Origin: an uncultured Planctomycetia bacterium
Lineage (GTDB): Bacteria; Omnitrophota; Gorgyraeia; Duberdicusellales; Duberdicusellaceae
NCBI GenBank assembly: GCA_964634935.1
Contig: CAZWJT010000002.1
Span: forward strand, 138,643-202,642
Length of the DNA stretch: 64,000 bases
Direction of reading: 5' to 3'
Shown piece after piece: positions 1 to 58,906 of the stretch. Position 1 is the stretch's first letter; every line of letters starts with the position of its first letter. Below the pieces are notes generated by a model. The model did no database searches and was not told where the DNA came from. It saw only the letters and a list, made by a program, of their open reading frames with translations. The position numbers and the translations under genes were made by a program.

Positions 1-552
1 AACTTTATCTTCCCCGATGACGATCTTGAGTCTCTTGATATCTTCACGCAGAGTATTTCGTTGCTCTGGGAAGAACGATTAGTCAAAGAACGCATTCGTG
101 AGCTTGACATCCGTGATCCTCTCACTGGACTTTATAGTGAACAGCATATTCATTCAGCATTCATCGCGGCAATGAATCTGGCTTTAGAACGTCATACTCC
201 CTGCGGCTTTATTCTTTTGAGGGTTTACGATTTTCAGTCAACCGATTTGGCAATACCTTCGAGAAAGGTAGAATATTCGTTAAAAAAAGTAAGTGATTTG
301 ATACTTGCTCACCTTGATATTTTTGATAAAGCTGGTCGCATTGGCGACGAACAATTTGCAATTATTGTTCCCAAAAAAAGCAAATCAGCCGTGGAGAAGA
401 AATCGTCCGATATCATCACTGACATCAATGAATTTATTTCTTCAAATACCATAGGTATCCGTTTCTCAGTGGCATCGGCGGTAGTCGAGAGTCCCATTGA
501 TGGCGTAAGTGCAGAGGAGCTTTTGCGTAAAGCGCAGCAAAATCTCCGGTAG
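1..552 (+). CDS. GGDEF-domain protein, C-terminal part (5' end lies upstream of the window); active-site motif degenerate (RIGDEQF instead of RYGGEEF)
   Basis: Frame 1 is open from base 1. The translation contains DPLTGLYSE (GGDEF domain start) and AGRIGDEQFAIIVP at the GG[DE]EF position. No RxxD I-site lies directly upstream. Stop at 550-552. Confidence 0.55.
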   Translation, partial: NFIFPDDDLESLDIFTQSISLLWEERLVKERIRELDIRDPLTGLYSEQHIHSAFIAAMNLALERHTPCGFILLRVYDFQSTDLAIPSRKVEYSLKKVSDLILAHLDIFDKAGRIGDEQFAIIVPKKSKSAVEKKSSDIITDINEFISSNTIGIRFSVASAVVESPIDGVSAEELLRKAQQNLR

Positions 553-558
553 TGTGCC

Positions 559-1005
559 ATGTATCTGAAAAGAAAAATAAATAAACCATTAGGGCAGCTT
601 TTGATTGAGCGGGGTCTTTTAACTACAGTTCAGCTAGAAAAGGCCCTGGGATTACAGCGTGAAAAAGGGGGATTGATCGGTGAGGTTATTATCTCGTTGG
701 GTTTTGTTACTGAAATAGAAATAGCCCACGCCTTGTCGCTGCAATATGGATTTCCTTATTTGCCCCTAGAGAATTACGGTATTTCACCCGAAGCTTTGGC
801 AACAATCCCGCGCCAAGTAGCAGAGCAATACTGCCTGGTTCCTCTTGATAAGGTTGGCAATACACTAATGGTCGCCACCGCTGATCCTTTAAATAGTCAT
901 GCGATCGAAGATATTGAATATTTAAGCGGATGTGCGGTGCAAATTTTTGTCAGCACGGTTTCGGATATTCGGAATGCGATCTCTAAGTACTATGCTCAAT
1001 CATAA
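559..1005 (+). CDS. Standalone MshEN / T2SSE_N domain protein (c-di-GMP-binding N-domain of GspE/MshE type, no ATPase domain)
   Basis: 148 aa. The N-terminus carries two tandem 24-aa motifs matching the MshEN c-di-GMP consensus RLGxxLLxxGLLxxxxLxxxLxxQ: PLGQLLIERGLLTTVQLEKALGLQ, a 5-aa spacer REKGG, then LIGEVIISLGFVTEIEIAHALSLQ. The rest resembles a GspE N-terminal domain (…LVPLDKVGNTLMVATADPLN…). Confidence 0.7.
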   Translation: MYLKRKINKPLGQLLIERGLLTTVQLEKALGLQREKGGLIGEVIISLGFVTEIEIAHALSLQYGFPYLPLENYGISPEALATIPRQVAEQYCLVPLDKVGNTLMVATADPLNSHAIEDIEYLSGCAVQIFVSTVSDIRNAISKYYAQS

Positions 1006-1086: not shown

Positions 1087-2784
1087 ATGGATTTTAAGGA
1101 AAAAATAATTACCGCACTTGAAGAAAGTAAGATTCTCGATAAAGAAAAAATAGAAGAAATTCTTCTTCGCCACAAACAGGAAGGCGGCAGCCTCGTCGAA
1201 ACATTTATTCGCTCAGGGTACATCAACGAGACTGAATTTTTGAGTATTTTATCCGCAAGTCTTTCGATTCCATCCATCGAACTTTCAAAGATTGAAATCG
1301 CGCCTGAGATCATAGCGAGTATTCCAGCACCGTATATCTGGAAGTACAGGGTTATTCCTTTTGGAAAGATAGAAAAAACGCTTACTGTTGCAGTAATTGA
1401 TCCTTTTGAATTATTTGCTTTCGATGATTTAGAACGATTGACAGGCTTTACCTTAAATCCCGTGCTTGCTTCACGTAAAGAAATTGAGGCAGCGTTGAAT
1501 AAATATTATCGTGAGCCCGTCGCTGATGAGATGGAAACATTATTGAATACTATTCCTGAGGGCGGTTCCATTGAAGTAGTAGGGGGGGCACCGGAGGAGA
1601 AGGAAGCGGAGGTCACCGTCCAGGCAATCCAAGAGGGGCCAGTGATCAAATTAACTAATTTTTTACTTGCTCAAGCCGTACAAATGCGCGCTTCAGATGT
1701 TCTTATTGAGCCTCTTGAGAAAAAAATGAGAGTCCGCTATCGAATTGATGGTGTTCTTGAAGAAATAGAGTCTCCGCCGTTCGCTATGTTCCCGTTTATT
1801 GTTTCTCGGATTAAAGTTATGTCAAATCTTGATATTGCGGAGCATCGGCTGCCCCAAGATGGTAGATTTCGTATTAAGCAGCGCGAGAATGACATTGATT
1901 TTCGTGTTTCTATCGTTCCTTCTATTCTTGGTGAAAAAGTTGCCTTGCGCATACTTGATAAAAGTGCTGCCGCGCTCGATATCGAAAAACTCGGATTTCT
2001 TGATGAATCAATAGCGGTTATTAAGAAGATTTCTTCTCGTCCGCACGGTATGATTATTTCCTGTGGACCAACTGGATCCGGGAAGACGACAACCCTTTAT
2101 TCCATACTCAAGCATATTTATTCTCCGACAAAAAATATTATTACAGTCGAGGATCCTGTTGAGTATGAAATGAAAGGGATTAATCAGGTTAACGTGGACA
2201 CTGAAGTCGGGTTAACCTTTGCTTCTTCTCTGCGGGCTATCCTTCGGCAAGATCCCGACATCATCATGGTAGGTGAGATCAGGGATTTTGAGACCGTTGA
2301 CATCGCGATTAAAGCTGCCCTTACGGGCCATCTTGTTCTTTCAACGCTTCATACCACAACCGCTGTTGGATCGTTAATACGTCTCATCAACATGGGAATA
2401 GAACCGTTTTTGATTACTTCATCGTTAATTGGGATTATTGCTCAGCGGCTCTTGCGCAAGCTTTGTGAAAAGTGTAAAGAGCAGTATGTGGTATCAACAG
2501 TTATTCTTGATACTTTGAAGATTCGCGAGAAAAACGTACAATTTTATCGAGCGAAAGGATGCCGAGAATGCAATATGACAGGTTATCGGGGAAGGATTGG
2601 GGTTTGTGAAACATTAGCCGTGAGCGAGCAGTTGCGTGAAAAAATTCTTGCGAATGCCTCCGAGGGTGAAATTTTTGCATTAGCATGTTCACTGGGCATG
2701 AAATCATTCAAGGAAGATGCGCGCCAAAAAGTGATAAGCGGATCAACATCACTGGAAGAAGCCTTGCGGACAGTGGGGGTGTGA
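1087..2784 (+). CDS. pilB: GspE/PilB-family type IV filament assembly ATPase, paralog 1
   Basis: 565 aa. Has an N-terminal T2SSE_N domain, Walker A GPTGSGKTTT, Asp box, His box (TLHTTTAVGS) and a C-terminal tetra-Cys zinc site (CEKCKEQY…CRECNMTGYRGR). Confidence 0.85.
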   Translation: MDFKEKIITALEESKILDKEKIEEILLRHKQEGGSLVETFIRSGYINETEFLSILSASLSIPSIELSKIEIAPEIIASIPAPYIWKYRVIPFGKIEKTLTVAVIDPFELFAFDDLERLTGFTLNPVLASRKEIEAALNKYYREPVADEMETLLNTIPEGGSIEVVGGAPEEKEAEVTVQAIQEGPVIKLTNFLLAQAVQMRASDVLIEPLEKKMRVRYRIDGVLEEIESPPFAMFPFIVSRIKVMSNLDIAEHRLPQDGRFRIKQRENDIDFRVSIVPSILGEKVALRILDKSAAALDIEKLGFLDESIAVIKKISSRPHGMIISCGPTGSGKTTTLYSILKHIYSPTKNIITVEDPVEYEMKGINQVNVDTEVGLTFASSLRAILRQDPDIIMVGEIRDFETVDIAIKAALTGHLVLSTLHTTTAVGSLIRLINMGIEPFLITSSLIGIIAQRLLRKLCEKCKEQYVVSTVILDTLKIREKNVQFYRAKGCRECNMTGYRGRIGVCETLAVSEQLREKILANASEGEIFALACSLGMKSFKEDARQKVISGSTSLEEALRTVGV

Positions 2785-4472
2785 TGAAGAGTTTTAAAGA
2801 GAAGATTCGAGATTTATTGGTGGCAAAAGGAATTCAATTCCATGATGGTCTTTTAAATGACGCAAAGAATTCTAATGATCTGAAAAAGCTTCTGCTTGCG
2901 CAAAACTGGCTTACTGAAACCGAATTTCTCGGTTTTCTCTCGCAGGAGCTGGAGATTCCGTATATCGATATAAAAAAATATACCGTTTCTCCGGAAAATA
3001 CGAGTTATATTCCTGAGGACATAGCGTTTCAATATCGGGTTTTTCCGCTATCTCGGCTTAAAAATTCACTTACGATAGCAACCGCTAATCCGTTAGATGT
3101 CTTGACGCTTGATGACATAAAATTAAAGTTACAGGTTGATTTACAGCTTGTTCTTGCCAATGAGACCGATATTCTCGCTTTGCTCAATAAACTATACAAA
3201 AAAGAAGAGACATTTTCTTCGTTGCTTGCCCAGGCATCGACTGACTCGGATTTTAATGTAGCCCAAGATAAGTCTTCAGAGATTCTCGCGTCTGAAGGAT
3301 TTGACTTGCTGGCTGAAAGTAAAACGGCCCCAATCGTTAAAATCGTTGACCTCTTTGTTTATGAAGCTCTCTCCAAACGGGCGTCAGATATTCACATTGA
3401 ACCTACGGAGTTTGTTCTTAAGGTACGATATCGCATTGACGGTCTTTTGCAAGATGCTTTTGATATCCCACGGAAGAATCAGAATGCCATATTTGCCCGC
3501 TTGAAGATTATGTCGGGATTGAATATTACCGAAACGAAAATTCCACAGGACGGTCGATTTAAGGTGAAAATGCAGAGCCGGGAGGTTGATTTTAGGGTTT
3601 CGTCGTTGCCTACCCGTTACGGAGAAAAATTTGTTCTTCGGGCTCTCGATAAAAGTAACCTTTCTATAGGGCTTGACAAGCTTGGTTTTTCTGATGTCCC
3701 TCGGCAGCTCTTTGAGGCGGCGGTTAAGAAACCCTTTGGGATTATTCTCGTTACCGGACCAACTGGTAGCGGAAAGTCCACGACACTTTACTCCATTGTG
3801 AACTATTTAAATGGTGCCGATCGCCATATTGTGACCATAGAAGATCCGGTTGAATATCAAATACAGGGGTTGACCCAGATTCCTGTCAACGCTGAATTGG
3901 GATTGACTTTCGCGGCAGCTCTTCGCGCGGTACTGCGTCAATCTCCGGATATTATCATGGTTGGTGAAATCCGGGATTCCGAAACCGCCGATATTGCGAT
4001 AAAAGCTTCACTGACCGGAGAGCTTATTTTTTCGACGCTTCACACCAATGATTCCGTTGGAGCTATTATTCGGCTTGCCGATATGGGGATTGAGCCTTTT
4101 CTTTTGGCATCTTCCCTTTTGCTCACCTCTGCGCAGCGACTCTGCCGGAGGATTTGCCCTCACTGTAAGAATCCCAGTAAGCCTCCGGAGTATCTGCTCA
4201 AGAAATTGCAGATTGTTCAGCACGATGCTGTATTTTTTGAAGGGAAAGGATGTGTAGAATGCAATAATACGGGATATCACGGACGCGAAGCGCTCTTGGA
4301 AGTTTTGGCAATCGATGATACAATAAAAGAAATGATTGTGAGGCGAAAATCAGAGCAAGACATACTTGAATATGCTCGGGCAAATCTTCATTTTCGTAGT
4401 TTGCGGGAAGACGGCATTGAAAAATGCCTTCGAGGCGTAACAACCCTTGAAGAAATACTTCGGGTGACTTAG
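2784..4472 (+). CDS. pilB: GspE/PilB-family type IV filament assembly ATPase, paralog 2
   Basis: 562 aa from the ATG at 2784, which overlaps the paralog-1 stop (TGATG). Has T2SSE_N domain, Walker A GPTGSGKSTT, TLHTNDSVGA and a tetra-Cys site CPHCKNP…CVECNNTGYHGR. The ORF-track start at 2685 is an upstream in-frame extension inside paralog 1. Confidence 0.85.
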   Translation: MKSFKEKIRDLLVAKGIQFHDGLLNDAKNSNDLKKLLLAQNWLTETEFLGFLSQELEIPYIDIKKYTVSPENTSYIPEDIAFQYRVFPLSRLKNSLTIATANPLDVLTLDDIKLKLQVDLQLVLANETDILALLNKLYKKEETFSSLLAQASTDSDFNVAQDKSSEILASEGFDLLAESKTAPIVKIVDLFVYEALSKRASDIHIEPTEFVLKVRYRIDGLLQDAFDIPRKNQNAIFARLKIMSGLNITETKIPQDGRFKVKMQSREVDFRVSSLPTRYGEKFVLRALDKSNLSIGLDKLGFSDVPRQLFEAAVKKPFGIILVTGPTGSGKSTTLYSIVNYLNGADRHIVTIEDPVEYQIQGLTQIPVNAELGLTFAAALRAVLRQSPDIIMVGEIRDSETADIAIKASLTGELIFSTLHTNDSVGAIIRLADMGIEPFLLASSLLLTSAQRLCRRICPHCKNPSKPPEYLLKKLQIVQHDAVFFEGKGCVECNNTGYHGREALLEVLAIDDTIKEMIVRRKSEQDILEYARANLHFRSLREDGIEKCLRGVTTLEEILRVT

Positions 4473-4473
4473 T

Positions 4474-5679
4474 ATGGCTCTTTTTGAATATATTGCGAAA
4501 AATCAGGAAGGAAAAGTTTTTAAGGGGCGGGTGGATGAACTTTCCAAAAGCAAGGTCATTGATATACTCCACTCAAAGAACCTCGTTATTATTTCGATTA
4601 GCGATGTTAAGAAAAAACTTTTTGATTTTAAGTTTGCCCAGTCGGTAACCCCTGAAGAAATCGTCATTTTTTGCCGGCAGTTGACGACGCTCATTGATAG
4701 TGGAGTTTCATTAGTCCAGTCGGTTGAGATATTAAATGAACAAACAAAAAACCAAAAACTTCGAGAAATATTATCCCGTGTTTTAACCGATGTCCGTGAG
4801 GGAAATGCATTTCACGCATCACTTGCAAAATTTCCCGCAGTATTTTCTTCTTTCGTCCTCAGTATGATAAAAGCTGGAGAGGCATCGGGGAATCTGCCAG
4901 AAATTTTGGACAGGGTAAGCACATATCTTGAAGAATCACTTTCTTTGCAGCGCAAAGTAAAATCCAGTCTTACGTATCCCGCGGTTGTCATTTGTATGGC
5001 GATTGCTATAACTACTTTTTTGATCGTAAAAGTAATCCCGACCTTTAAAGGAATTTTTGATTCTTTGGGCGGAACCTTGCCGCTTCCTACGCAAATGCTG
5101 TTGAGTCTGAGCGATTTTTTAAGCAGATTTATTTTTCTTTTTCTTGGTATTCTGGTCGCAGCCGGAATCGCGTTCAAGCGTTATCTTCGTACGGATCGGG
5201 GAAAAAAACAATTTGATTTTTTAATTTTGAAGTTGCCTATTATCGGCGATTTATTGAGAAAAGTTGCTATTGCTCAGTTCTGCCGGACATTTTCGACTCT
5301 TGTTCGCAGCGGAGTACCCATTTTGAATACACTGGATATTGTGGGAGCAACTTCCGGCAATAAAATTATTGAAGCGGCGGTTCTTACGGCAAAAAAATCA
5401 GTTCAAGAGGGGGAGCCGCTTTCCGAGCCTCTTGCGAGGACAAACATTTTTCCGATCATGGTCACTCGTATGATTGCAATCGGAGAGAAAACAGGAAAGC
5501 TCCAGGAGATGCTTTCGCGAATCGCCGATTTTTACACTGATGAAGTCAATACTGCGGTAGAGGGTTTAACAAGTATTATTGAACCTCTGATTATCGGCAT
5601 CTTGGGTGTTGTTATCGGAGGTATTGTTATTGCACTCTTTTTGCCGATTCTGAAAATTACCGAATTGGTTGGAGCATAA
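4474..5679 (+). CDS. pilC: PilC/GspF-family inner-membrane platform protein (two T2SSF domains)
   Basis: 401 aa. Duplicated T2SSF domain pattern (…GEASGNLPEILDRV… and …IGEKTGKLQEMLSRIADFY…) with three TM segments. Starts 2 nt after the upstream ATPase stop. Confidence 0.85.
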   Translation: MALFEYIAKNQEGKVFKGRVDELSKSKVIDILHSKNLVIISISDVKKKLFDFKFAQSVTPEEIVIFCRQLTTLIDSGVSLVQSVEILNEQTKNQKLREILSRVLTDVREGNAFHASLAKFPAVFSSFVLSMIKAGEASGNLPEILDRVSTYLEESLSLQRKVKSSLTYPAVVICMAIAITTFLIVKVIPTFKGIFDSLGGTLPLPTQMLLSLSDFLSRFIFLFLGILVAAGIAFKRYLRTDRGKKQFDFLILKLPIIGDLLRKVAIAQFCRTFSTLVRSGVPILNTLDIVGATSGNKIIEAAVLTAKKSVQEGEPLSEPLARTNIFPIMVTRMIAIGEKTGKLQEMLSRIADFYTDEVNTAVEGLTSIIEPLIIGILGVVIGGIVIALFLPILKITELVGA

Positions 5680-5717: not shown

Positions 5718-8700
5718 ATGAAAAGAGTTATATTGTTTTGTTTTTTCTTATTCATTACGGCTGGTATTTCCTTTGCTGCTACCGATCGTATTATACGCTA
5801 CGGTGAGCGTGTTGAGCAGTATTATCACGCGGGTGACTATGATGCAGTAATCCAGGTATGCCAAAAGATTCTCAATATCTCAGCACAGAACAATTTTGCT
5901 CGTGACTATATCAATAAAGCCGAAACTAATAAAACTATCCAAGCGGATATCGAGCGTCTCGTGGAGAGTGATAATGTTTTACTGGCTGAAGAAAAAATCA
6001 ATTATCTTTTGCGGGAATCACCAGGTTCTCGCAAATTGCAAAAATTGGAAAAGCAAGTTGCATATGCCAAGAGTAGGCTTCAGAAAAAGCTTTCTCAGGA
6101 AATGTATGGGTTTTCAGTTGAGCGAATCCGTGCATGCATTATGGAAAAGAAATTTGCTCAAGCCCAATCATTGCTCGATGGATTGAAGAAGCGCCATCCG
6201 GAAAATGCCGAAATGCGAACACTCTCAAAAACACTTGCACAGCGCGTTGAACAAGACAAGCAGGAAAAATTCATTGCTCAGCGTTCATCAGATATCGCCA
6301 GTATCACCGAGCGTATTGATGCGGCTTTGCGCAACAATGAATTTTCCAGTGCGCGAGGTGCTCTTACCCAGCTTACCCAGGCATATCCTTCGGATTCTCT
6401 CGTGAATGCTCGCGCTGTTTCTCTTGAGCAAAAGATTAAGTTATCAGAGGCAAGCTTTCTGAAAGAAAAAGAAAGAAACGAAAAGGCTGAGTTGCTCAAA
6501 GAGCAAAAATTCACCCAAGAAATGGCGGATATCGAAACAATGATGCAAAAGGAAAACTATACCGACGCGGAACAGCGTTTGCTTATGCTCAAGAAAAATT
6601 ATCCACAGAAGGGCGCCGAAGTGGACAACCAGTTTACACAGTTGGAGCAGATTCAGAAATTATCTCGGGAGGTTAATTCCTTGCTTCTTTCAGAGTTATT
6701 TGATCAAGCTCTCGAGCGCACGCGAGTTTCACGAGAATTCTATGGTGGTAACGCGCATATTCTTGAACTTCTGAATAATTGGGACAGGAAAATAATCACT
6801 TCAAAGGTACGCGCATTAGAATCGTTAGAGAAAAGGAAAGTAGAAGAGGGGAAAAAGCAATTTTTCACCGATATCGGAACGCTGCGTATTTTGATTGATG
6901 AAAAGAAATTTGCTCAAGCCCAATCATTGCTCGATGGATTGAAGAAGCGCCATCCGGAAAATGCCGAAATGCGAACACTCTCAAAAACACTTGCACAGCG
7001 CGTTGAACAAGACAAGCAGGAAAAATTCATTGCTCAGCGTTCATCAGATATCGCCAGTATCACCGAGCGTATTGATGCGGCGATAGAAAAATCAGATTTT
7101 ACACGAGCATTCGAAGCAACGGAGGAGTTGCGCAAGAGCTATCCTGGCGATTCTTTGGTATCCAAAACGGCAATTTCTCTTGATAAAAAAATCTCTTCCC
7201 AGAGAACACGCTATCTCAGTGAGGTACAGAAGAAAGAAAGAAGCGAGCAGGAAAAGACGCTTGCGGCACAGAAAGAAGACCTACGGAATTCTACCGCGGG
7301 TATGGAGGATGCAATTCGAAAGGCTGATTTCGATGAAGCAAAAAAGATTCTATCGGGCTTAAAAGAAAGACATCCCTCAGCAAAGGAAATTCAGGAAACT
7401 GCAGTTTCTTTCGGAAATAAGATAAAGACCGCCGAAGAAGCCTTCCTGCGCAAAAACCAGCAGAAAGAAAAACAACTTTTTACTGCGACTAAAGAAAGCG
7501 ATGCATTAACGATAAGCCAAACGGTTCTCAATCATATAGAAGCAGCTGACTTTTCAGCCGCCCGCGCTGCTCTTCACAGTTATAAAGCAAAATACTTGAA
7601 AGAGCAGGATGCCCAAAAGAAAGTTTTGCTTCTTGAGGAAAAAATCAAGACAGCTGAGCATCTCCATCAGAACCAACAAGAAGAAATTCGGAAAAAATTC
7701 ACCCAAGAAATGGCGGATATCGAAACAATGATGCAAAAGGAAAACTATACCGACGCGGAACAGCGTTTGCTTATGCTCAAGAAAAATTATCCACAGAAGG
7801 GCGCCGAAGTGGAAAAGGTCCTACAAAGAGTAGAATCGGCGCTCGAAAAAGTTAAGATAGAACAGGAAAAGAAAAGTGCCGCAGAAAAACGCCGCCAGCA
7901 GGAACGAGATCTCATTTTCGCTCAGAGATTAGAAGGAATCACCACGCTTATTACACAACAGAAGTTTGCTGAGGCTAAGAATAGTTTGCTTTCGCTGCAG
8001 AAAGAGTTTCCGGAGTACCAGCAAATCAAAGAATTTTTAAAAGATATTGATTCCAGAATTCAACAGCATAATGTCGAACAAAAAAAGATTGCCGCACGCA
8101 AGGAAAACACCGAAGACAATGTCATGCAGGAGCTTGCTGTGCGCTTTAACGCTGCTTATTCAAAGAAGCAATACGTTGAAGCTCAGAATATACTCACACA
8201 CTATAAAAGTACTTTTCCCGCATACAAAAAAATTCATTCATTTACCGAAGAAAAATTTGCTTTGCTCCGAAAAGTTCGCGCTGAAGAAAATTTAAAACAG
8301 AACCTAAAAACTCAAAAATCTTTTGGTCATGCAACGTTAGCAAAGGATGAGTTGGTTGCTCAAGTCGAGGTGCTTATTCATGATGAATATTTAGCACGGA
8401 ATGATTTCGAAGGCGCGCGGATGGTCCTGGGTGAATTCGACAGTAATTTTTCCATCGATCCATATCTCGAGCAAAAAATAAAATCGATTGGACGTACGAT
8501 TAACCAAGCAGAAGAGCGCCATAAATCATTAGCAGGTATTTCGACTACGGGTTATGGCGATGAAGTTCTTGATGGGAAAATCGCGAAACTTGAAATGTTC
8601 ATTCAATTAGGCGATTTTATCAACGCCCGCAATCTTTCTGATGAACTTTTACGAACTTATCCGGAGAATATTCAAGTGAGAACCCTTGCGGAAACGTTAA

Positions 8701-8813
8701 ATCGGAAGCTCAAAAAGACACGAAAACAAGATCCAGCGCGAACGCCGATTCCTGAAAATGCGGTAAGCAAAGAAAAAAAGAATCCCCCGGCGTATCTCGA
8801 GAAACGCAGTTAA
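5718..8813 (+). CDS. Secreted 1031-aa helical repeat protein (TPR-like ~70-aa modules with recurring x-F-x-x-A-x-x-x-L-x-x-L-x-x-x-[YFH]P motif); function unknown
   Basis: Signal peptide MKRVILFCFFLFITAGISFA. K/E-rich. Recurrent module, e.g. KKFAQAQSLLDGLKKRHPENAEM, ADFDEAKKILSGLKERHPSAKEI, QKFAEAKNSLLSLQKEFPEYQQI, KQYVEAQNILTHYKSTFPAYKKI. Contains perfect internal nucleotide duplications. Confidence 0.6.
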   Translation: MKRVILFCFFLFITAGISFAATDRIIRYGERVEQYYHAGDYDAVIQVCQKILNISAQNNFARDYINKAETNKTIQADIERLVESDNVLLAEEKINYLLRESPGSRKLQKLEKQVAYAKSRLQKKLSQEMYGFSVERIRACIMEKKFAQAQSLLDGLKKRHPENAEMRTLSKTLAQRVEQDKQEKFIAQRSSDIASITERIDAALRNNEFSSARGALTQLTQAYPSDSLVNARAVSLEQKIKLSEASFLKEKERNEKAELLKEQKFTQEMADIETMMQKENYTDAEQRLLMLKKNYPQKGAEVDNQFTQLEQIQKLSREVNSLLLSELFDQALERTRVSREFYGGNAHILELLNNWDRKIITSKVRALESLEKRKVEEGKKQFFTDIGTLRILIDEKKFAQAQSLLDGLKKRHPENAEMRTLSKTLAQRVEQDKQEKFIAQRSSDIASITERIDAAIEKSDFTRAFEATEELRKSYPGDSLVSKTAISLDKKISSQRTRYLSEVQKKERSEQEKTLAAQKEDLRNSTAGMEDAIRKADFDEAKKILSGLKERHPSAKEIQETAVSFGNKIKTAEEAFLRKNQQKEKQLFTATKESDALTISQTVLNHIEAADFSAARAALHSYKAKYLKEQDAQKKVLLLEEKIKTAEHLHQNQQEEIRKKFTQEMADIETMMQKENYTDAEQRLLMLKKNYPQKGAEVEKVLQRVESALEKVKIEQEKKSAAEKRRQQERDLIFAQRLEGITTLITQQKFAEAKNSLLSLQKEFPEYQQIKEFLKDIDSRIQQHNVEQKKIAARKENTEDNVMQELAVRFNAAYSKKQYVEAQNILTHYKSTFPAYKKIHSFTEEKFALLRKVRAEENLKQNLKTQKSFGHATLAKDELVAQVEVLIHDEYLARNDFEGARMVLGEFDSNFSIDPYLEQKIKSIGRTINQAEERHKSLAGISTTGYGDEVLDGKIAKLEMFIQLGDFINARNLSDELLRTYPENIQVRTLAETLNRKLKKTRKQDPARTPIPENAVSKEKKNPPAYLEKRS
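6144..6325 (+). repeat. 182-bp perfect direct repeat, copy 1 (copy 2 at 6900-7081), in frame within the repeat-protein gene
   Basis: I read the two stretches as base-for-base identical (gaaaagaaatttgctcaagcccaatcattgctcgatgg … gagcgtattgatgcggc). They encode the identical peptide EKKFAQAQSLLDGLKKRHPENAEMRTLSKTLAQRVEQDKQEKFIAQRSSDIASITERIDAA. Confidence 0.85.
6505..6625 (+). repeat. 121-bp perfect direct repeat, copy 1 (copy 2 at 7693-7813), in frame within the repeat-protein gene
   Basis: Identical run aaaaattcacccaagaaatggcggatatcgaaacaatgatgcaaaagg … gggcgccgaagtgga. Encodes KFTQEMADIETMMQKENYTDAEQRLLMLKKNYPQKGAEV twice. Confidence 0.85.
6900..7081 (+). repeat. 182-bp perfect direct repeat, copy 2
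   Basis: Identical to 6144-6325 by my reading. Confidence 0.85.
7693..7813 (+). repeat. 121-bp perfect direct repeat, copy 2
   Basis: Identical to 6505-6625 by my reading. Confidence 0.85.
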
Positions 8814-56579: not shown

Positions 56580-57219
56580 AGAAAAAAAGATTTATTTTTT
56601 CCTTTTTTCATTTATCTTTGGAATTATCCTTGTTTTTCCTGGAATGCTTCGTGCGCAGTCGAATCCTGAACCTTTTGTGTTAAAAAAGAAAGATTCTCCG
56701 CAATCATCACCCTGGTTTCTTCGCTGGATTCCTGAAAAGAAAAAGAAAACAGGAACTTCCGGCAAAAAAAACATACAACAAACCCAACCAGATCGGCCAT
56801 GCGCTGTGCTGGAACAAGATTTCAGCAGGTGCAAGCAAAATAATTCTCTGCTCAATGACCAACTAGCTACGACTATAAGCGAATTAGAAAATGCAAAGCT
56901 TGAACTTGAACGGCTTCGAAAGAATTTAAAAGCATTACAGAATTTTGTCGTAGCGGCAAATCTACTCACGAAAGAACAAATTGAAGAATTGCAGGATGGG
57001 AACTGGGAACTGACTCTGGAAAAACTCTTACAGACTCAAGGTAAGCCAGAACGCAGTGATTTTCATGAAGTAACCAAAGGGGAATCCCTCTGGAGTATTG
57101 CCCAGAAAGAATACAACAACCCTTATAAGTGGCTCCTTTTGTATCATGCGAACAAAGACCAGATTTATGATGCAGACCTCATCTACCCCGGAATGGTTCT
57201 TATTATCCCTCGATATTAG
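56560..57219 (+). CDS. LysM-domain coiled-coil protein with N-terminal signal/anchor
   Basis: MEKKLHREKKIYFFLFSFIFGIILVFPGMLRA. Coiled-coil segment …LATTISELENAKLELERLRKNLKAL… C-terminal LysM HEVTKGESLWSIAQKEYNNPYKWLLLYHANKDQIYDADLIYPGMVLIIP. The track ORF start at 56284 is an extension overlapping the PEP-CTERM gene. Confidence 0.7.
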   Translation: MEKKLHREKKIYFFLFSFIFGIILVFPGMLRAQSNPEPFVLKKKDSPQSSPWFLRWIPEKKKKTGTSGKKNIQQTQPDRPCAVLEQDFSRCKQNNSLLNDQLATTISELENAKLELERLRKNLKALQNFVVAANLLTKEQIEELQDGNWELTLEKLLQTQGKPERSDFHEVTKGESLWSIAQKEYNNPYKWLLLYHANKDQIYDADLIYPGMVLIIPRY

Positions 57220-57220
57220 C

Positions 57221-58906
57221 ATGTTTAAAAAACATTCCTTCCTCCTTGTTTTCTTGGTTACGAGCATAGTTTCGGTATATGCCGCAATGAGTCGTACTGT
57301 GGACGAGGCTCTTCTCGAAGTTGAAATGGGCAAAAGAGTAGAAGGAATCCTCGACAAACTCATCGGCAGCCAGCGAAGTATCGTTGACGTCAAAGTAACC
57401 TTGAAAGATATGACCGAAAGCGACATTGGAAAGCTGCGTATGCTTCGTCATACGCTCCCTGGCATGGCTACATCACAGATGCAAGACGAAAACGAACAGA
57501 ATGCAACTGATCCAAAAAACCGGTTTAAAGTTCTAGCTCCCCTTATTTCAACAATGAGCGTTACCATTTTAGTAGACGAGAAACTTCCGAAGGAAAAAAT
57601 TACTATAATTGAAAAAGAAATACCGCCGCTTATTGGTTTAAATCTTGCCAAAGGCGACCTATTAACAGTGAAGCCAATCCCTTGGAAAGATGTTCTCACT
57701 GAAGAAATGGCGATTAAACAGGTGGGATTATCCAAAAGTTCTTATTTTGTTCTTGTTTTAATAGCTGTTTTTACTGGTGGAGTTGTTATTTTTTTCTTCA
57801 GCCAATTTTTAGGAAAAAAGCTGAAAAAAATATCAGCGGATCAACTTGATACATTCAGCAGTTATGCGAATAAGATGGATGTCGCTCGAGGTGACCTTAC
57901 AGATTCGCTTCATAAAATGGGTGAAGCATTACAGCAAATGATGCAGTCAGAAAGTGGGGGACATGGCGGAGGCGCACGAGAAATGTCTGATGTTCTTCAA
58001 AAACTTATTGAAACGCAAAAAGAAGTAAGCGATTCAAGTACGGACAGAATCACCGAAGCTCTTATGGAGCTCAAGGACTCACTTGGGGAAGTTGGAGGCG
58101 GCGGTCCAGGCGGAGGCGGAGCAGGAGGGGCAGGAGGTGGAGGATTTGGAGGAGGCGGAGCAGGGGGGACAGGAGGTGGAGGCGGAGAAGGAATTTCAAA
58201 GCTGGCCGCAGAATCACAAGATCCAATGACCAAGGCTTTGGCTATTATGAATTCCTTAAAACCCGAAGAAATTATGCAAATCCTCCAAGATGAAGATGCG
58301 CATATGAAAGCGATTGTTGTGGCTCATTTAAGTCCTGAAAAATCTGCGGAATTTCTCCTTGCGCTTGATGATGAAAATCGGAACACGCTTACGACCGCAA
58401 TAGCTCAAATTCCAGAAGGTGACATTGAAAGTCTTTTAGCATTGAAGGATTTTCTTGATAAAAAAGCAACCGTCATTATGCATCGCAATCTCCTGCCTGG
58501 AAAGGCGGCTCGAGCAATGGCAAAAATGTTGAGCCGTTCATTACCAGAAGTACGCAAGTCTGTTCTTGATAATATTCGGAAACGAACCCCAGAAGTGGCT
58601 GAAGAAATTGAAGATAGTTTGTTTTTATTCGACGATATCAGCAAACTTGATGATCGAACAATAAAAAGCGTTATCGCCAATATTGACCGCAATGTTTTAA
58701 TCAGGGCATTGAAAAAAGCAAGCAGTACCACCAAGGAGAAAATACTGGCGACCTTTACCCCCCGATCTCGGTCTATTCTTGAAGAAGATATCGATGTTCT
58801 TGGCGAAATCCCTTTTCAGGTTTGTCTGCAGGCCCAGAACATTATTCTTGATCGTATTGATATTTTAATTGAAGAGGGAAATTTTGGAACAGCGAGTACA
58901 GGATAA
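57221..58906 (+). CDS. Bitopic membrane protein combining a YscJ/FliF-like periplasmic ring-building motif, a TM helix, a poly-Gly linker and FliG-like middle plus C-terminal (torque-helix) domains
   Basis: 561 aa from the ATG at 57221. Signal/TM1 FLLVFLVTSIVSVYA. Periplasmic EVEMGKRVEGILDKLIGSQRSIVDVKVTLKD (cf. FliF/YscJ LEGELARTIESLxGVxSARVHL). TM2 YFVLVLIAVFTGGVVIFFF. G-rich tract GGGGPGGGGAGGAGGGGFGGGGAGGTGGGGG. FliG-like EIMQILQDEDAHMKAIVVAHLSPEKSAEFL… and LFLFDDISKLDDRTIKSVIANIDRNVLIRALKKASSTTKEKILATFTPRSRSILEEDIDVLGEIP…IILDRIDILIEEG (cf. FliG MFVFEDL…LALKGA…MSQRAADILRDDL…IVRRLAETGE). Confidence 0.6.
   Translation: MFKKHSFLLVFLVTSIVSVYAAMSRTVDEALLEVEMGKRVEGILDKLIGSQRSIVDVKVTLKDMTESDIGKLRMLRHTLPGMATSQMQDENEQNATDPKNRFKVLAPLISTMSVTILVDEKLPKEKITIIEKEIPPLIGLNLAKGDLLTVKPIPWKDVLTEEMAIKQVGLSKSSYFVLVLIAVFTGGVVIFFFSQFLGKKLKKISADQLDTFSSYANKMDVARGDLTDSLHKMGEALQQMMQSESGGHGGGAREMSDVLQKLIETQKEVSDSSTDRITEALMELKDSLGEVGGGGPGGGGAGGAGGGGFGGGGAGGTGGGGGEGISKLAAESQDPMTKALAIMNSLKPEEIMQILQDEDAHMKAIVVAHLSPEKSAEFLLALDDENRNTLTTAIAQIPEGDIESLLALKDFLDKKATVIMHRNLLPGKAARAMAKMLSRSLPEVRKSVLDNIRKRTPEVAEEIEDSLFLFDDISKLDDRTIKSVIANIDRNVLIRALKKASSTTKEKILATFTPRSRSILEEDIDVLGEIPFQVCLQAQNIILDRIDILIEEGNFGTASTG

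Follow-up and report, generated by a model that had tools for sequence, protein, structure and literature searches.

MshEN domains are widespread receptors for cyclic di-GMP (c-di-GMP), and both MshEN proteins that lack an ATPase domain and trans-acting c-di-GMP cofactors of the type IV pilus assembly ATPase PilB are known. Here we examine a stretch of 64,000 nucleotides (nt), referred to throughout as the window (contig CAZWJT010000002.1 of assembly GCA_964634935.1, positions 138,643 to 202,642 of the forward strand), from an uncultured bacterium labelled Planctomycetia and assigned by GTDB to the Omnitrophota. Near its start, a gene for a standalone MshEN domain of 148 amino acids (aa) lies directly upstream of two PilB-type ATPases, PilB-1 and PilB-2. 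We propose, with a probability of roughly 0.6, that this small protein belongs to the type IVa pilus motor module of Omnitrophota as its dedicated receptor subunit for c-di-GMP, probably one of high affinity.

Described MshEN systems and their relation to the locus

The N-domain of Vibrio cholerae MshE (5HTL; Wang et al., 2016, PMC5013675) shares with the window protein its fold, two 24-residue motifs joined by a five-residue spacer, a set of Gly, Leu and Gln ligand residues, and a tie to a type IV pilus assembly ATPase. The domain of MshE, however, forms part of the ATPase chain and works in cis, whereas here it is a separate 148-aa chain, and the position-1 residues R9 and R38 of MshE are replaced by Pro and Leu (PMC5013675). 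The GSPII-B domain of Thermus thermophilus PilF (8PDK; PMC11731258) resembles the window protein in having an Arg-free site whose motif II starts with Leu, and PilF as a whole is, like the motor described below, equipped with several MshEN-type domains of which some do not bind. The three domains of PilF reside in one chain, whereas at this locus the intact copy is free and the degenerate copies are carried by two ATPases (PMC11731258).

A precedent for an MshEN domain that can function without a fused ATPase is provided by Pseudomonas aeruginosa PA3740, an ATPase-less MshEN protein that is listed with the c-di-GMP binders tested by experiment (Supplementary Table 4 of PMC5013675); Wang et al. 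list a further ATPase-less architecture, cce_1044, given as (MshEN_N)2 (PMC5013675). PA3740 has a highly divergent T2SSE_N1 subdomain where that of the window protein is canonical (Pfam 70 bits; the two were compared by description), and it is not reported within a pilB-pilC operon. Sensing of c-di-GMP in trans is known from the FimX-PilZ-PilB system of Xanthomonas citri and P. aeruginosa (7LKO; PMC8389850, PMC11656802), which resembles our locus in that the PilB N-domain is a non-binding MshEN fold used as a docking site and in that a degenerate GGDEF domain takes part. Its receptor is the EAL domain of FimX, bridged by PilZ and unrelated in fold to MshEN (PMC8389850, PMC11656802), whereas the trans receptor proposed here is a paralogue of the ATPase’s own N-domain. 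The tie to a pilus motor that marks PilB cofactors of the FimX/PilZ class is present, the standalone gene lying directly upstream of pilB in nearly all of 85 surveyed loci. Escherichia coli NfrB-DgcJ (PMC8669469) likewise has an MshEN receptor wired to a specific GGDEF partner as a local module, but in NfrB the MshEN domain is part of a glycosyltransferase fusion and DgcJ has cyclase activity (PMC8669469), whereas the GGDEF protein encoded next to the standalone domain is degenerate in 76 of 77 orthologues.

Set beside these systems, the standalone MshEN protein would be a natural case of a sensor in trans, a modest variation on a known theme that will not surprise specialists. Our literature search, which covered few subscription journals, returned no account of a standalone MshEN family, of its operon or of a single-MshEN protein serving a pilus motor, and no description of a c-di-GMP-controlled pilus motor in Omnitrophota.

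The standalone MshEN protein

The gene and its parts, all on the forward strand, are as follows.

559..1005, + strand: standalone MshEN gene, ATG start, TAA stop, 148 aa; predicted c-di-GMP receptor without an ATPase domain
586..657, + strand: c-di-GMP motif I, PLGQLLIERGLLTTVQLEKALGLQ, residues 10-33; inside the NF053729 alignment of residues 10-62
658..672, + strand: five-residue spacer REKGG, residues 34-38; read from the sequence
673..744, + strand: c-di-GMP motif II, LIGEVIISLGFVTEIEIAHALSLQ, residues 39-62; Leu at position 1, as in the high-affinity PilF GSPII-B type
745..1002, + strand: C-terminal alpha/beta subdomain of T2SSE_N1 type, residues 63-148, with the invariant linker YGFPYLPL; from PF05157 and the predicted secondary structure (AlphaFold2, AF2)

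The protein is one complete MshEN domain and nothing else, with a helical subdomain that holds both motifs followed by an alpha/beta subdomain. The NCBIfam model NF053729 (“c-di-GMP_motif”; cyclic di-GMP-binding domain, MshE-related), which has a curated cutoff of 38 bits, matches residues 10-62 with 56.6 bits (E 1.7e-15), and Pfam MshEN (PF05157) matches residues 63-147 with 70.2 bits (E 1.5e-19). No Pfam match to a T2SSE ATPase domain occurs in the protein, whose chain stops at residue 148 with a TAA codon. In a phmmer comparison with PDB sequences, V. cholerae MshEN (5htl) matches with an E-value of 2.4e-16, and the values for PilF/PilB N-domains are as low as 1e-42. A first-pass annotation, made from the letters of the window and a list of its open reading frames (ORFs), had called this gene a standalone MshEN domain with two 24-residue motifs around the spacer REKGG; the domain, the motif boundaries and the sequence it quoted are all exact.

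That annotation had named alignment to MshE and structure prediction as ways of checking the assignment, and both bear it out: the motif residues align with the MshE N-domain and with the hidden Markov models (HMMs), and an AF2 model built with 63 homologues (mean predicted local distance difference test score, pLDDT, 90.9) places helices at residues 11-17, 23-36, 40-46 and 52-63, followed by an alpha/beta unit. Among PDB structures, Foldseek ranks 5htl_B, the complex of V. cholerae MshEN with c-di-GMP, as the best match of this model (template modelling, TM, scores 0.81/0.86; root-mean-square deviation 2.1 Å over 139 columns), and the next are c-di-GMP-bound PilF GSPII-B structures, with 7lko also among the matches. 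Both the four-helix bundle and the T2SSE_N1 alpha/beta subdomain are thus predicted to be present.

Residues predicted to contact c-di-GMP

In MshEN domains the polar contacts to c-di-GMP come only from the Gly at position 3, the following residue and the pair of Gln residues, the remainder of the site being hydrophobic; the backbone amides of the position-3 Gly and its successor read the guanine O6 and N7 (PMC5013675). The Gly set of MshE (G11, G18, G40 and G47) corresponds to G12, G19, G41 and G48 of the standalone protein. Across the 85 loci, Gly at position 3 is kept in all 85 standalone proteins in both motifs, and Gly at position 10 in 76 (motif I) and 80 (motif II). The Gln at position 24 (Q32 and Q61 in MshE, Q33 and Q62 here) is likewise present in 85/85 loci for each motif. 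The guanines are sandwiched by two hydrophobic triads. In MshE these are L10/L54/L58 and L25/L29/L39; their equivalents in the window protein are L11/I55/L59 and L26/L30/I40, where Ile stands in for Leu twice (I55 and I40), and the positions are nearly invariant across the family. Within motif I, residues G12, L15, L26, L30 and Q33 are invariant or nearly so across the family, and the spacer residues G37 and G38 are invariant among close homologues.

The first-pass annotation had further stated that the motifs match the MshEN consensus at almost every position. Both motifs do match the model; the consensus Arg at position 1, however, is absent from each (P10 in motif I, L39 in motif II), and this is a trait of the family. 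Of 120 close homologues, 91 have Gln and 18 have Pro at the first position of motif I, and 119 have Leu at the first position of motif II; in the locus survey this Leu is found in 84 of 85 loci. The absence of the Arg is no argument against binding, since PilF GSPII-B, with Lys and Leu at these positions, binds c-di-GMP with a dissociation constant of 6 nM, and exchanging its Leu for Arg (L196R) weakens binding 4-fold (PMC11731258); the consensus was widened to (R/K/L)LG... after that domain was characterized (PMC11731258). PilF GSPII-C has Pro at position 1 and still binds, at ~460 nM (PMC11731258). We infer that the helical bundle of the standalone protein would bind c-di-GMP as V. cholerae MshE and T. 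thermophilus PilF GSPII-B do.

Conservation and distribution

A search of 5.8 billion protein sequences gave 901 matches at E < 1e-5. Almost all of the best 120, which we inspected, are 145-153 aa long and 55-73% identical to the window protein; where named, they are hypothetical proteins of Candidatus Omnitrophota/Omnitrophica or carry the Joint Genome Institute (JGI) label “PilB”, a misnomer, given that the window protein has no T2SSE match. Scanning one genome per GTDB species for relatives of the standalone protein yielded at least 584 stretches, and the best 80 of these come essentially all from Omnitrophota metagenome-assembled genomes. For 85 loci we then identified the ORFs and used phmmer to classify them. 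The standalone gene is a separate ORF in all 85 and is fused to an ATPase in none. Among 51 genomes with a complete operon it encodes the most conserved protein of the operon, with a median pairwise identity of 65%, compared with 58% for the platform protein PilC, 57% for PilB-1, 55.5% for PilB-2 and 41% for the upstream GGDEF protein; the PilB catalytic cores taken alone reach 63-64%. The standalone MshEN gene is a real gene under strong constraint, and its conservation rules out a pseudogene or fragment.

Outside this family, an HMMER search over 1.84 billion cluster representatives placed 39 proteins of at most 200 aa among its top 150 matches, mostly with good motifs; short single-MshEN proteins are common in metagenomes, and multi-MshEN proteins without an ATPase also exist. 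The same operon occurs in genomes labelled “uncultured Planctomycetales/Planctomycetia” (L008, L011, L022, L042 and others) and in one labelled Candidatus Margulisiibacteriota. These labels look like placeholder or mis-binned taxonomy, since both gene content and identity match the Omnitrophota loci.

Two motors with degenerate N-domains

The two ATPase genes follow the standalone gene directly, as the first-pass annotation had placed them.

1087..2784, + strand: PilB-1, 565 aa, type IV pilus assembly ATPase (T2SSE 449 bits; TIGR02538 606.9 bits; MshEN 70.6 bits)
2784..4472, + strand: PilB-2, 562 aa, second assembly-type ATPase; ATG at 2784, with a 1-nt overlap with the PilB-1 stop (TGATG)

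PilB-2 is 41% identical to PilB-1, and both retain the Walker A motif, the Asp-box Glu, the GEIRD motif, the His box and the Cys4 zinc site. Since these catalytic motifs are intact, both proteins should be active motors. Each also begins with a full-length MshEN fold by Pfam (PilB-1 70.6 bits, PilB-2 68.5 bits). The c-di-GMP motif is another matter: NF053729 gives PilB-1 of the window 22.6 bits, below the cutoff, and does not match PilB-2, in keeping with the earlier statement that the adjacent ATPase N-domains fail the motif. In four other genomes the scores are 47-60 bits for the N-domains of PilB-1 and 37-49 bits for those of PilB-2, most of them above the cutoff, so that the complete loss of the motif at the level of the HMM is specific to the window lineage. 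The relatives pass because the hydrophobic framework of the bundle is kept in both ATPases. The HMM score alone is therefore a misleading test of degeneracy, and we replaced it with a census of residues in 85 standalone proteins, 80 PilB-1 and 63 PilB-2 sequences.

In this census Gly at position 3 of motif I is found in 0 of 80 PilB-1 (Thr in 52, Ile in 9, Ser in 5) and 0 of 63 PilB-2 sequences (Ile in 35), and at position 3 of motif II in 7/80 (Ser in 57) and 7/63 (Arg in 38), respectively. The Gln at position 24 of motif I is largely present (76/80 in PilB-1, 47/63 in PilB-2); that of motif II is missing from all 80 PilB-1 sequences (Gly in 53) and present in 31/63 of PilB-2. PilB-1 retains Arg/Lys at motif position 1. 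Changes at these places have known consequences: MshE G11L shows no detectable c-di-GMP binding, G11V and G40L are among the changes blamed for the failure of XpsE to bind (PMC5013675), and PilF GSPII-A, in which one motif is degenerate, fails to bind the ligand (PMC11731258). Judged by these substitutions, the N-domains of PilB-1 and PilB-2 are very probably ligand-blind. In one locus (L025), PilB-1 and PilB-2 appear as a single ORF of 1173 aa, either a fusion or a sequencing error.

Origin of the standalone domain

In typical relatives the standalone domain and the N-domains of PilB-1 and PilB-2 are roughly equidistant, with pairwise identities of 34-45%, and all three are 35-46% identical to the N-domain of Geobacter PilB. 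This pattern points to a three-way paralogy in which the standalone protein is an old additional paralogue. The first-pass annotation had described the sensing function as split off from the ATPases. Sensing outsourced from the ATPases is largely supported in terms of residues, the position-3 Gly being nearly always lost from them and kept in all standalone proteins, but the word split does not fit: a fission of genes is ruled out, as both ATPases keep a full MshEN-fold N-domain and the three domains are about equally distant from one another. The contrast is stark in the window because the ATPase N-domains of this lineage have diverged much further, being 30-32% identical to those of orthologues where the standalone protein is 59% identical.

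The operon and its variants

The remaining genes of the operon that the window contains are the following.

1..552, + strand: 3' end of a GAF-GGDEF gene with a degenerate GDEQF motif and no RxxD I-site (Pfam GGDEF 52.6 bits; 443-aa protein)
4474..5679, + strand: PilC platform protein, 401 aa (T2SSF 224 bits; NF052607 PilC 391.6 bits)

Nearly all of the 85 loci share the order (HAMP-)GAF-GGDEF, standalone MshEN, PilB-1, PilB-2, REC-HD-GYP and PilC, with intergenic gaps mostly between -4 and +20 nt. In the window the stop of the GAF-GGDEF gene lies 6 nt ahead of the start of the standalone gene, and a scan for promoters and terminators found no signal above chance between the genes of the operon. 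The standalone gene is very probably co-transcribed with PilB-1, PilB-2 and PilC. It and PilB-1 are in the same reading frame, separated by a spacer of 81 nt that contains three stop codons; in relatives the standalone and PilB genes overlap by 1-4 nt, like coupled separate genes. The stops and the overlaps rule out a readthrough or frameshift fusion of the two. No PilM, PilN or PilO gene is present in the operon or elsewhere in the 64-kb window. One sub-clade, of about 14 loci, carries a gene for a PilT retraction ATPase (356 aa; TIGR01420 489 bits) between its GGDEF and MshEN genes (for example L024 5917..6984, L047 5915..6985 and L054 3575..4645). We assign the system to type IVa pilus motors because of this PilT.

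The upstream degenerate GAF-GGDEF gene and the REC-HD-GYP gene of relatives, which the first-pass annotation did not include, also belong to the module. A complete copy of the former, with GAF and GGDEF domains, is seen in locus L001 (8663..9994). Its GGDEF motif is canonical in 1 of 77 orthologues, the variants including GDDEF, GDNEF and DDDEF, and the RxxD I-site is mostly absent; the protein thus shows a conserved degeneracy, is probably non-catalytic and is tightly coupled to the MshEN gene. With GDEQF in the window, these counts rule it out as a local cyclase for the clade. The HD-GYP protein of relatives looks intact, with HHExxDGxGYP in 30 of 32 sequences and HD in 32 of 32, and its receiver domain lacks the phospho-acceptor Asp (for example L002 12125..13195). 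Most relatives have this gene between PilB-2 and PilC; it is missing from the window, where PilB-2 ends at 4472 and PilC begins at 4474, so that the window lineage combines loss of the HD-GYP gene with much more diverged PilB N-domains. In L077 the usual place of the HD-GYP gene, between PilB-2 and PilC, is taken by an extra MshEN-like ORF of 154 aa.

Distant standalone relatives that are 38-40% identical (L088 and L089) stand in the same pilus-motor context. L089 has the order rodA, MshEN, PilB, PilB, HD-GYP, PilC, pilin and TPR protein, with no GGDEF gene. Since the contexts of L088 and L089 also keep both genes, the invariant pair is standalone MshEN followed by PilB. L088 (6090..9147; standalone protein 38% identical) has a membrane-anchored canonical RYGGDEF cyclase upstream, a single PilB without the motif glycines, PilC, PilS/PilR-like regulators and pilins, a layout that may be closer to the ancestral local signalling arrangement.

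Proposed role and alternative explanations

If the standalone protein is the receptor subunit that we propose, its liganded form would act in trans on PilB-1, PilB-2 or both, or on their docking site on the PilC/PilM platform, and would thereby gate pilus extension, a separate subunit doing what MshEN normally does in cis. Joined by the adjacent degenerate GAF-GGDEF protein and by the HD-GYP phosphodiesterase, with intact motifs, that most relatives encode, it would make up a local c-di-GMP signalling module. Such control may be activating or inhibitory, a sign that cannot be told from sequence. How c-di-GMP on MshEN alters PilB activity is still unclear even for studied systems (2024 review, PMC11656802), where results differ between model species; in Clostridium perfringens PilB2, titration with c-di-GMP left the rate of ATP hydrolysis unchanged (PMC11656802). 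Several observations weigh against the proposed role. The adjacent GGDEF protein is degenerate and no active cyclase was seen in the window. Motif I begins with Pro here and with Gln in most relatives, neither of which is in the validated R/K/L set. Finally, the ATPase N-domains of relatives exceed the motif cutoff and might bind c-di-GMP weakly; the standalone protein would then be a further sensor, not the sole one.

Two alternatives keep the standalone protein close to the motor and change what it does there. It might be a c-di-GMP-dependent motor-selection factor, binding one of the degenerate PilB N-domains or the platform and so picking the ATPase that is engaged; where the operon also holds PilT, as it does in some lineages, the factor might further mediate between PilT and the PilBs. 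We regard this as unlikely, though of some consequence if true: one second messenger would toggle pilus modes, for example attachment or predation versus DNA uptake, phylum-wide in ultra-small bacteria, and this would be the first MshEN domain to act as an exchangeable subunit. A decoy or competitive inhibitor, in which the standalone domain mimics the PilB N-domain and competes for platform docking (on a PilM/GspL-like protein or on PilC) under a c-di-GMP switch, is a special form of the trans-regulator model in which the sign is reversed. The full N1-type C-terminal subdomain (Pfam residues 63-147) and the similar size of the three paralogous domains would suit it, as would the Foldseek matches of the N1 subdomain to the EpsE-N1:EpsL and GspE:GspL complexes (2bh1 and 4pht), but those matches are weak (E 0.06-0.5), the operon and the window hold no PilM/N/O genes, and no feature separates a decoy from a positive regulator; we consider the decoy doubtful.

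The other explanations loosen the link between the standalone protein and motor control. PilB-1 and PilB-2 might still bind c-di-GMP through their own N-domains, the standalone protein adding a sensor without replacing one. The above-cutoff scores in relatives, the retained hydrophobic Leu positions and the Arg/Lys at position 1 of PilB-1 speak for this; set against them are the near-complete absence of the position-3 Gly from PilB-1 and PilB-2, in either motif, and the complete absence of the motif II Gln from PilB-1, the loss of binding in MshE G11L and in the one-bad-motif PilF GSPII-A, and the outright failure of the window’s ATPase N-domains against NF053729, and we think it rather unlikely. 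That the main partner is instead the degenerate GAF-GGDEF protein, in a FimX/PilZ-like complex with MshEN as the c-di-GMP-binding adaptor and only an indirect link to PilB, appears improbable. The short distance between the two genes (6 nt here, -4 to +20 nt typically in relatives) and a degeneracy expected of a non-catalytic scaffold or sensor would fit such a complex. L089, however, has no GGDEF gene and yet keeps the MshEN-PilB-PilB-HD-GYP-PilC series, L088 has at that position an RYGGDEF enzyme that its motif predicts to be active, PilT separates the two genes in about 14 loci, and the upstream GGDEF protein is the least conserved of the operon (41%), the invariant neighbour being the PilB gene. 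Very improbable, lastly, is a non-functional remnant (a truncated 5' fragment of pilB) or a general c-di-GMP buffer unrelated to pili, for which one could cite the JGI name “PilB” of some members and the transcribed 60-aa pilB fragment known in Paenibacillus thiaminolyticus (PMC9765702). Of the two halves of this explanation, the remnant is effectively refuted by the conservation data, namely a length constant at 145-153 aa in hundreds of species, the highest conservation in the operon and invariant ligand residues, and both halves are opposed by the strict synteny with pilB/pilC of a gene that is not scattered away from pilus genes.

Implications

A small, well-folding sensor that is separate from probably ligand-blind ATPase copies would allow the coupling between MshEN and motor to be studied in trans, in terms of partners, stoichiometry and the activity of the hexamer. 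For the uncultivated Omnitrophota, the proposed receptor subunit would provide a concrete, phylum-wide c-di-GMP output. The assignment also corrects annotation, the genes of 145-153 aa now called “hypothetical protein” or “PilB” being better named “MshEN-domain c-di-GMP receptor”.

Other features of the window

Immediately after PilC, positions 5718..8813 encode a secreted TPR-repeat protein of 1031 aa; in L089, too, a large TPR gene follows PilC and the pilin. The gene in the window contains long repeats, with 6144-6325 identical to 6900-7081 (182 nt, 100%) and 6505-6628 matching 7693-7816 (124 nt, 99%), which could be a recent duplication or an assembly artefact. Further away, positions 57098..58906 encode a 602-aa protein in which only the last ~215 residues hold FliG domains (middle and C-terminal), preceded by ~390 N-terminal residues that match no family.

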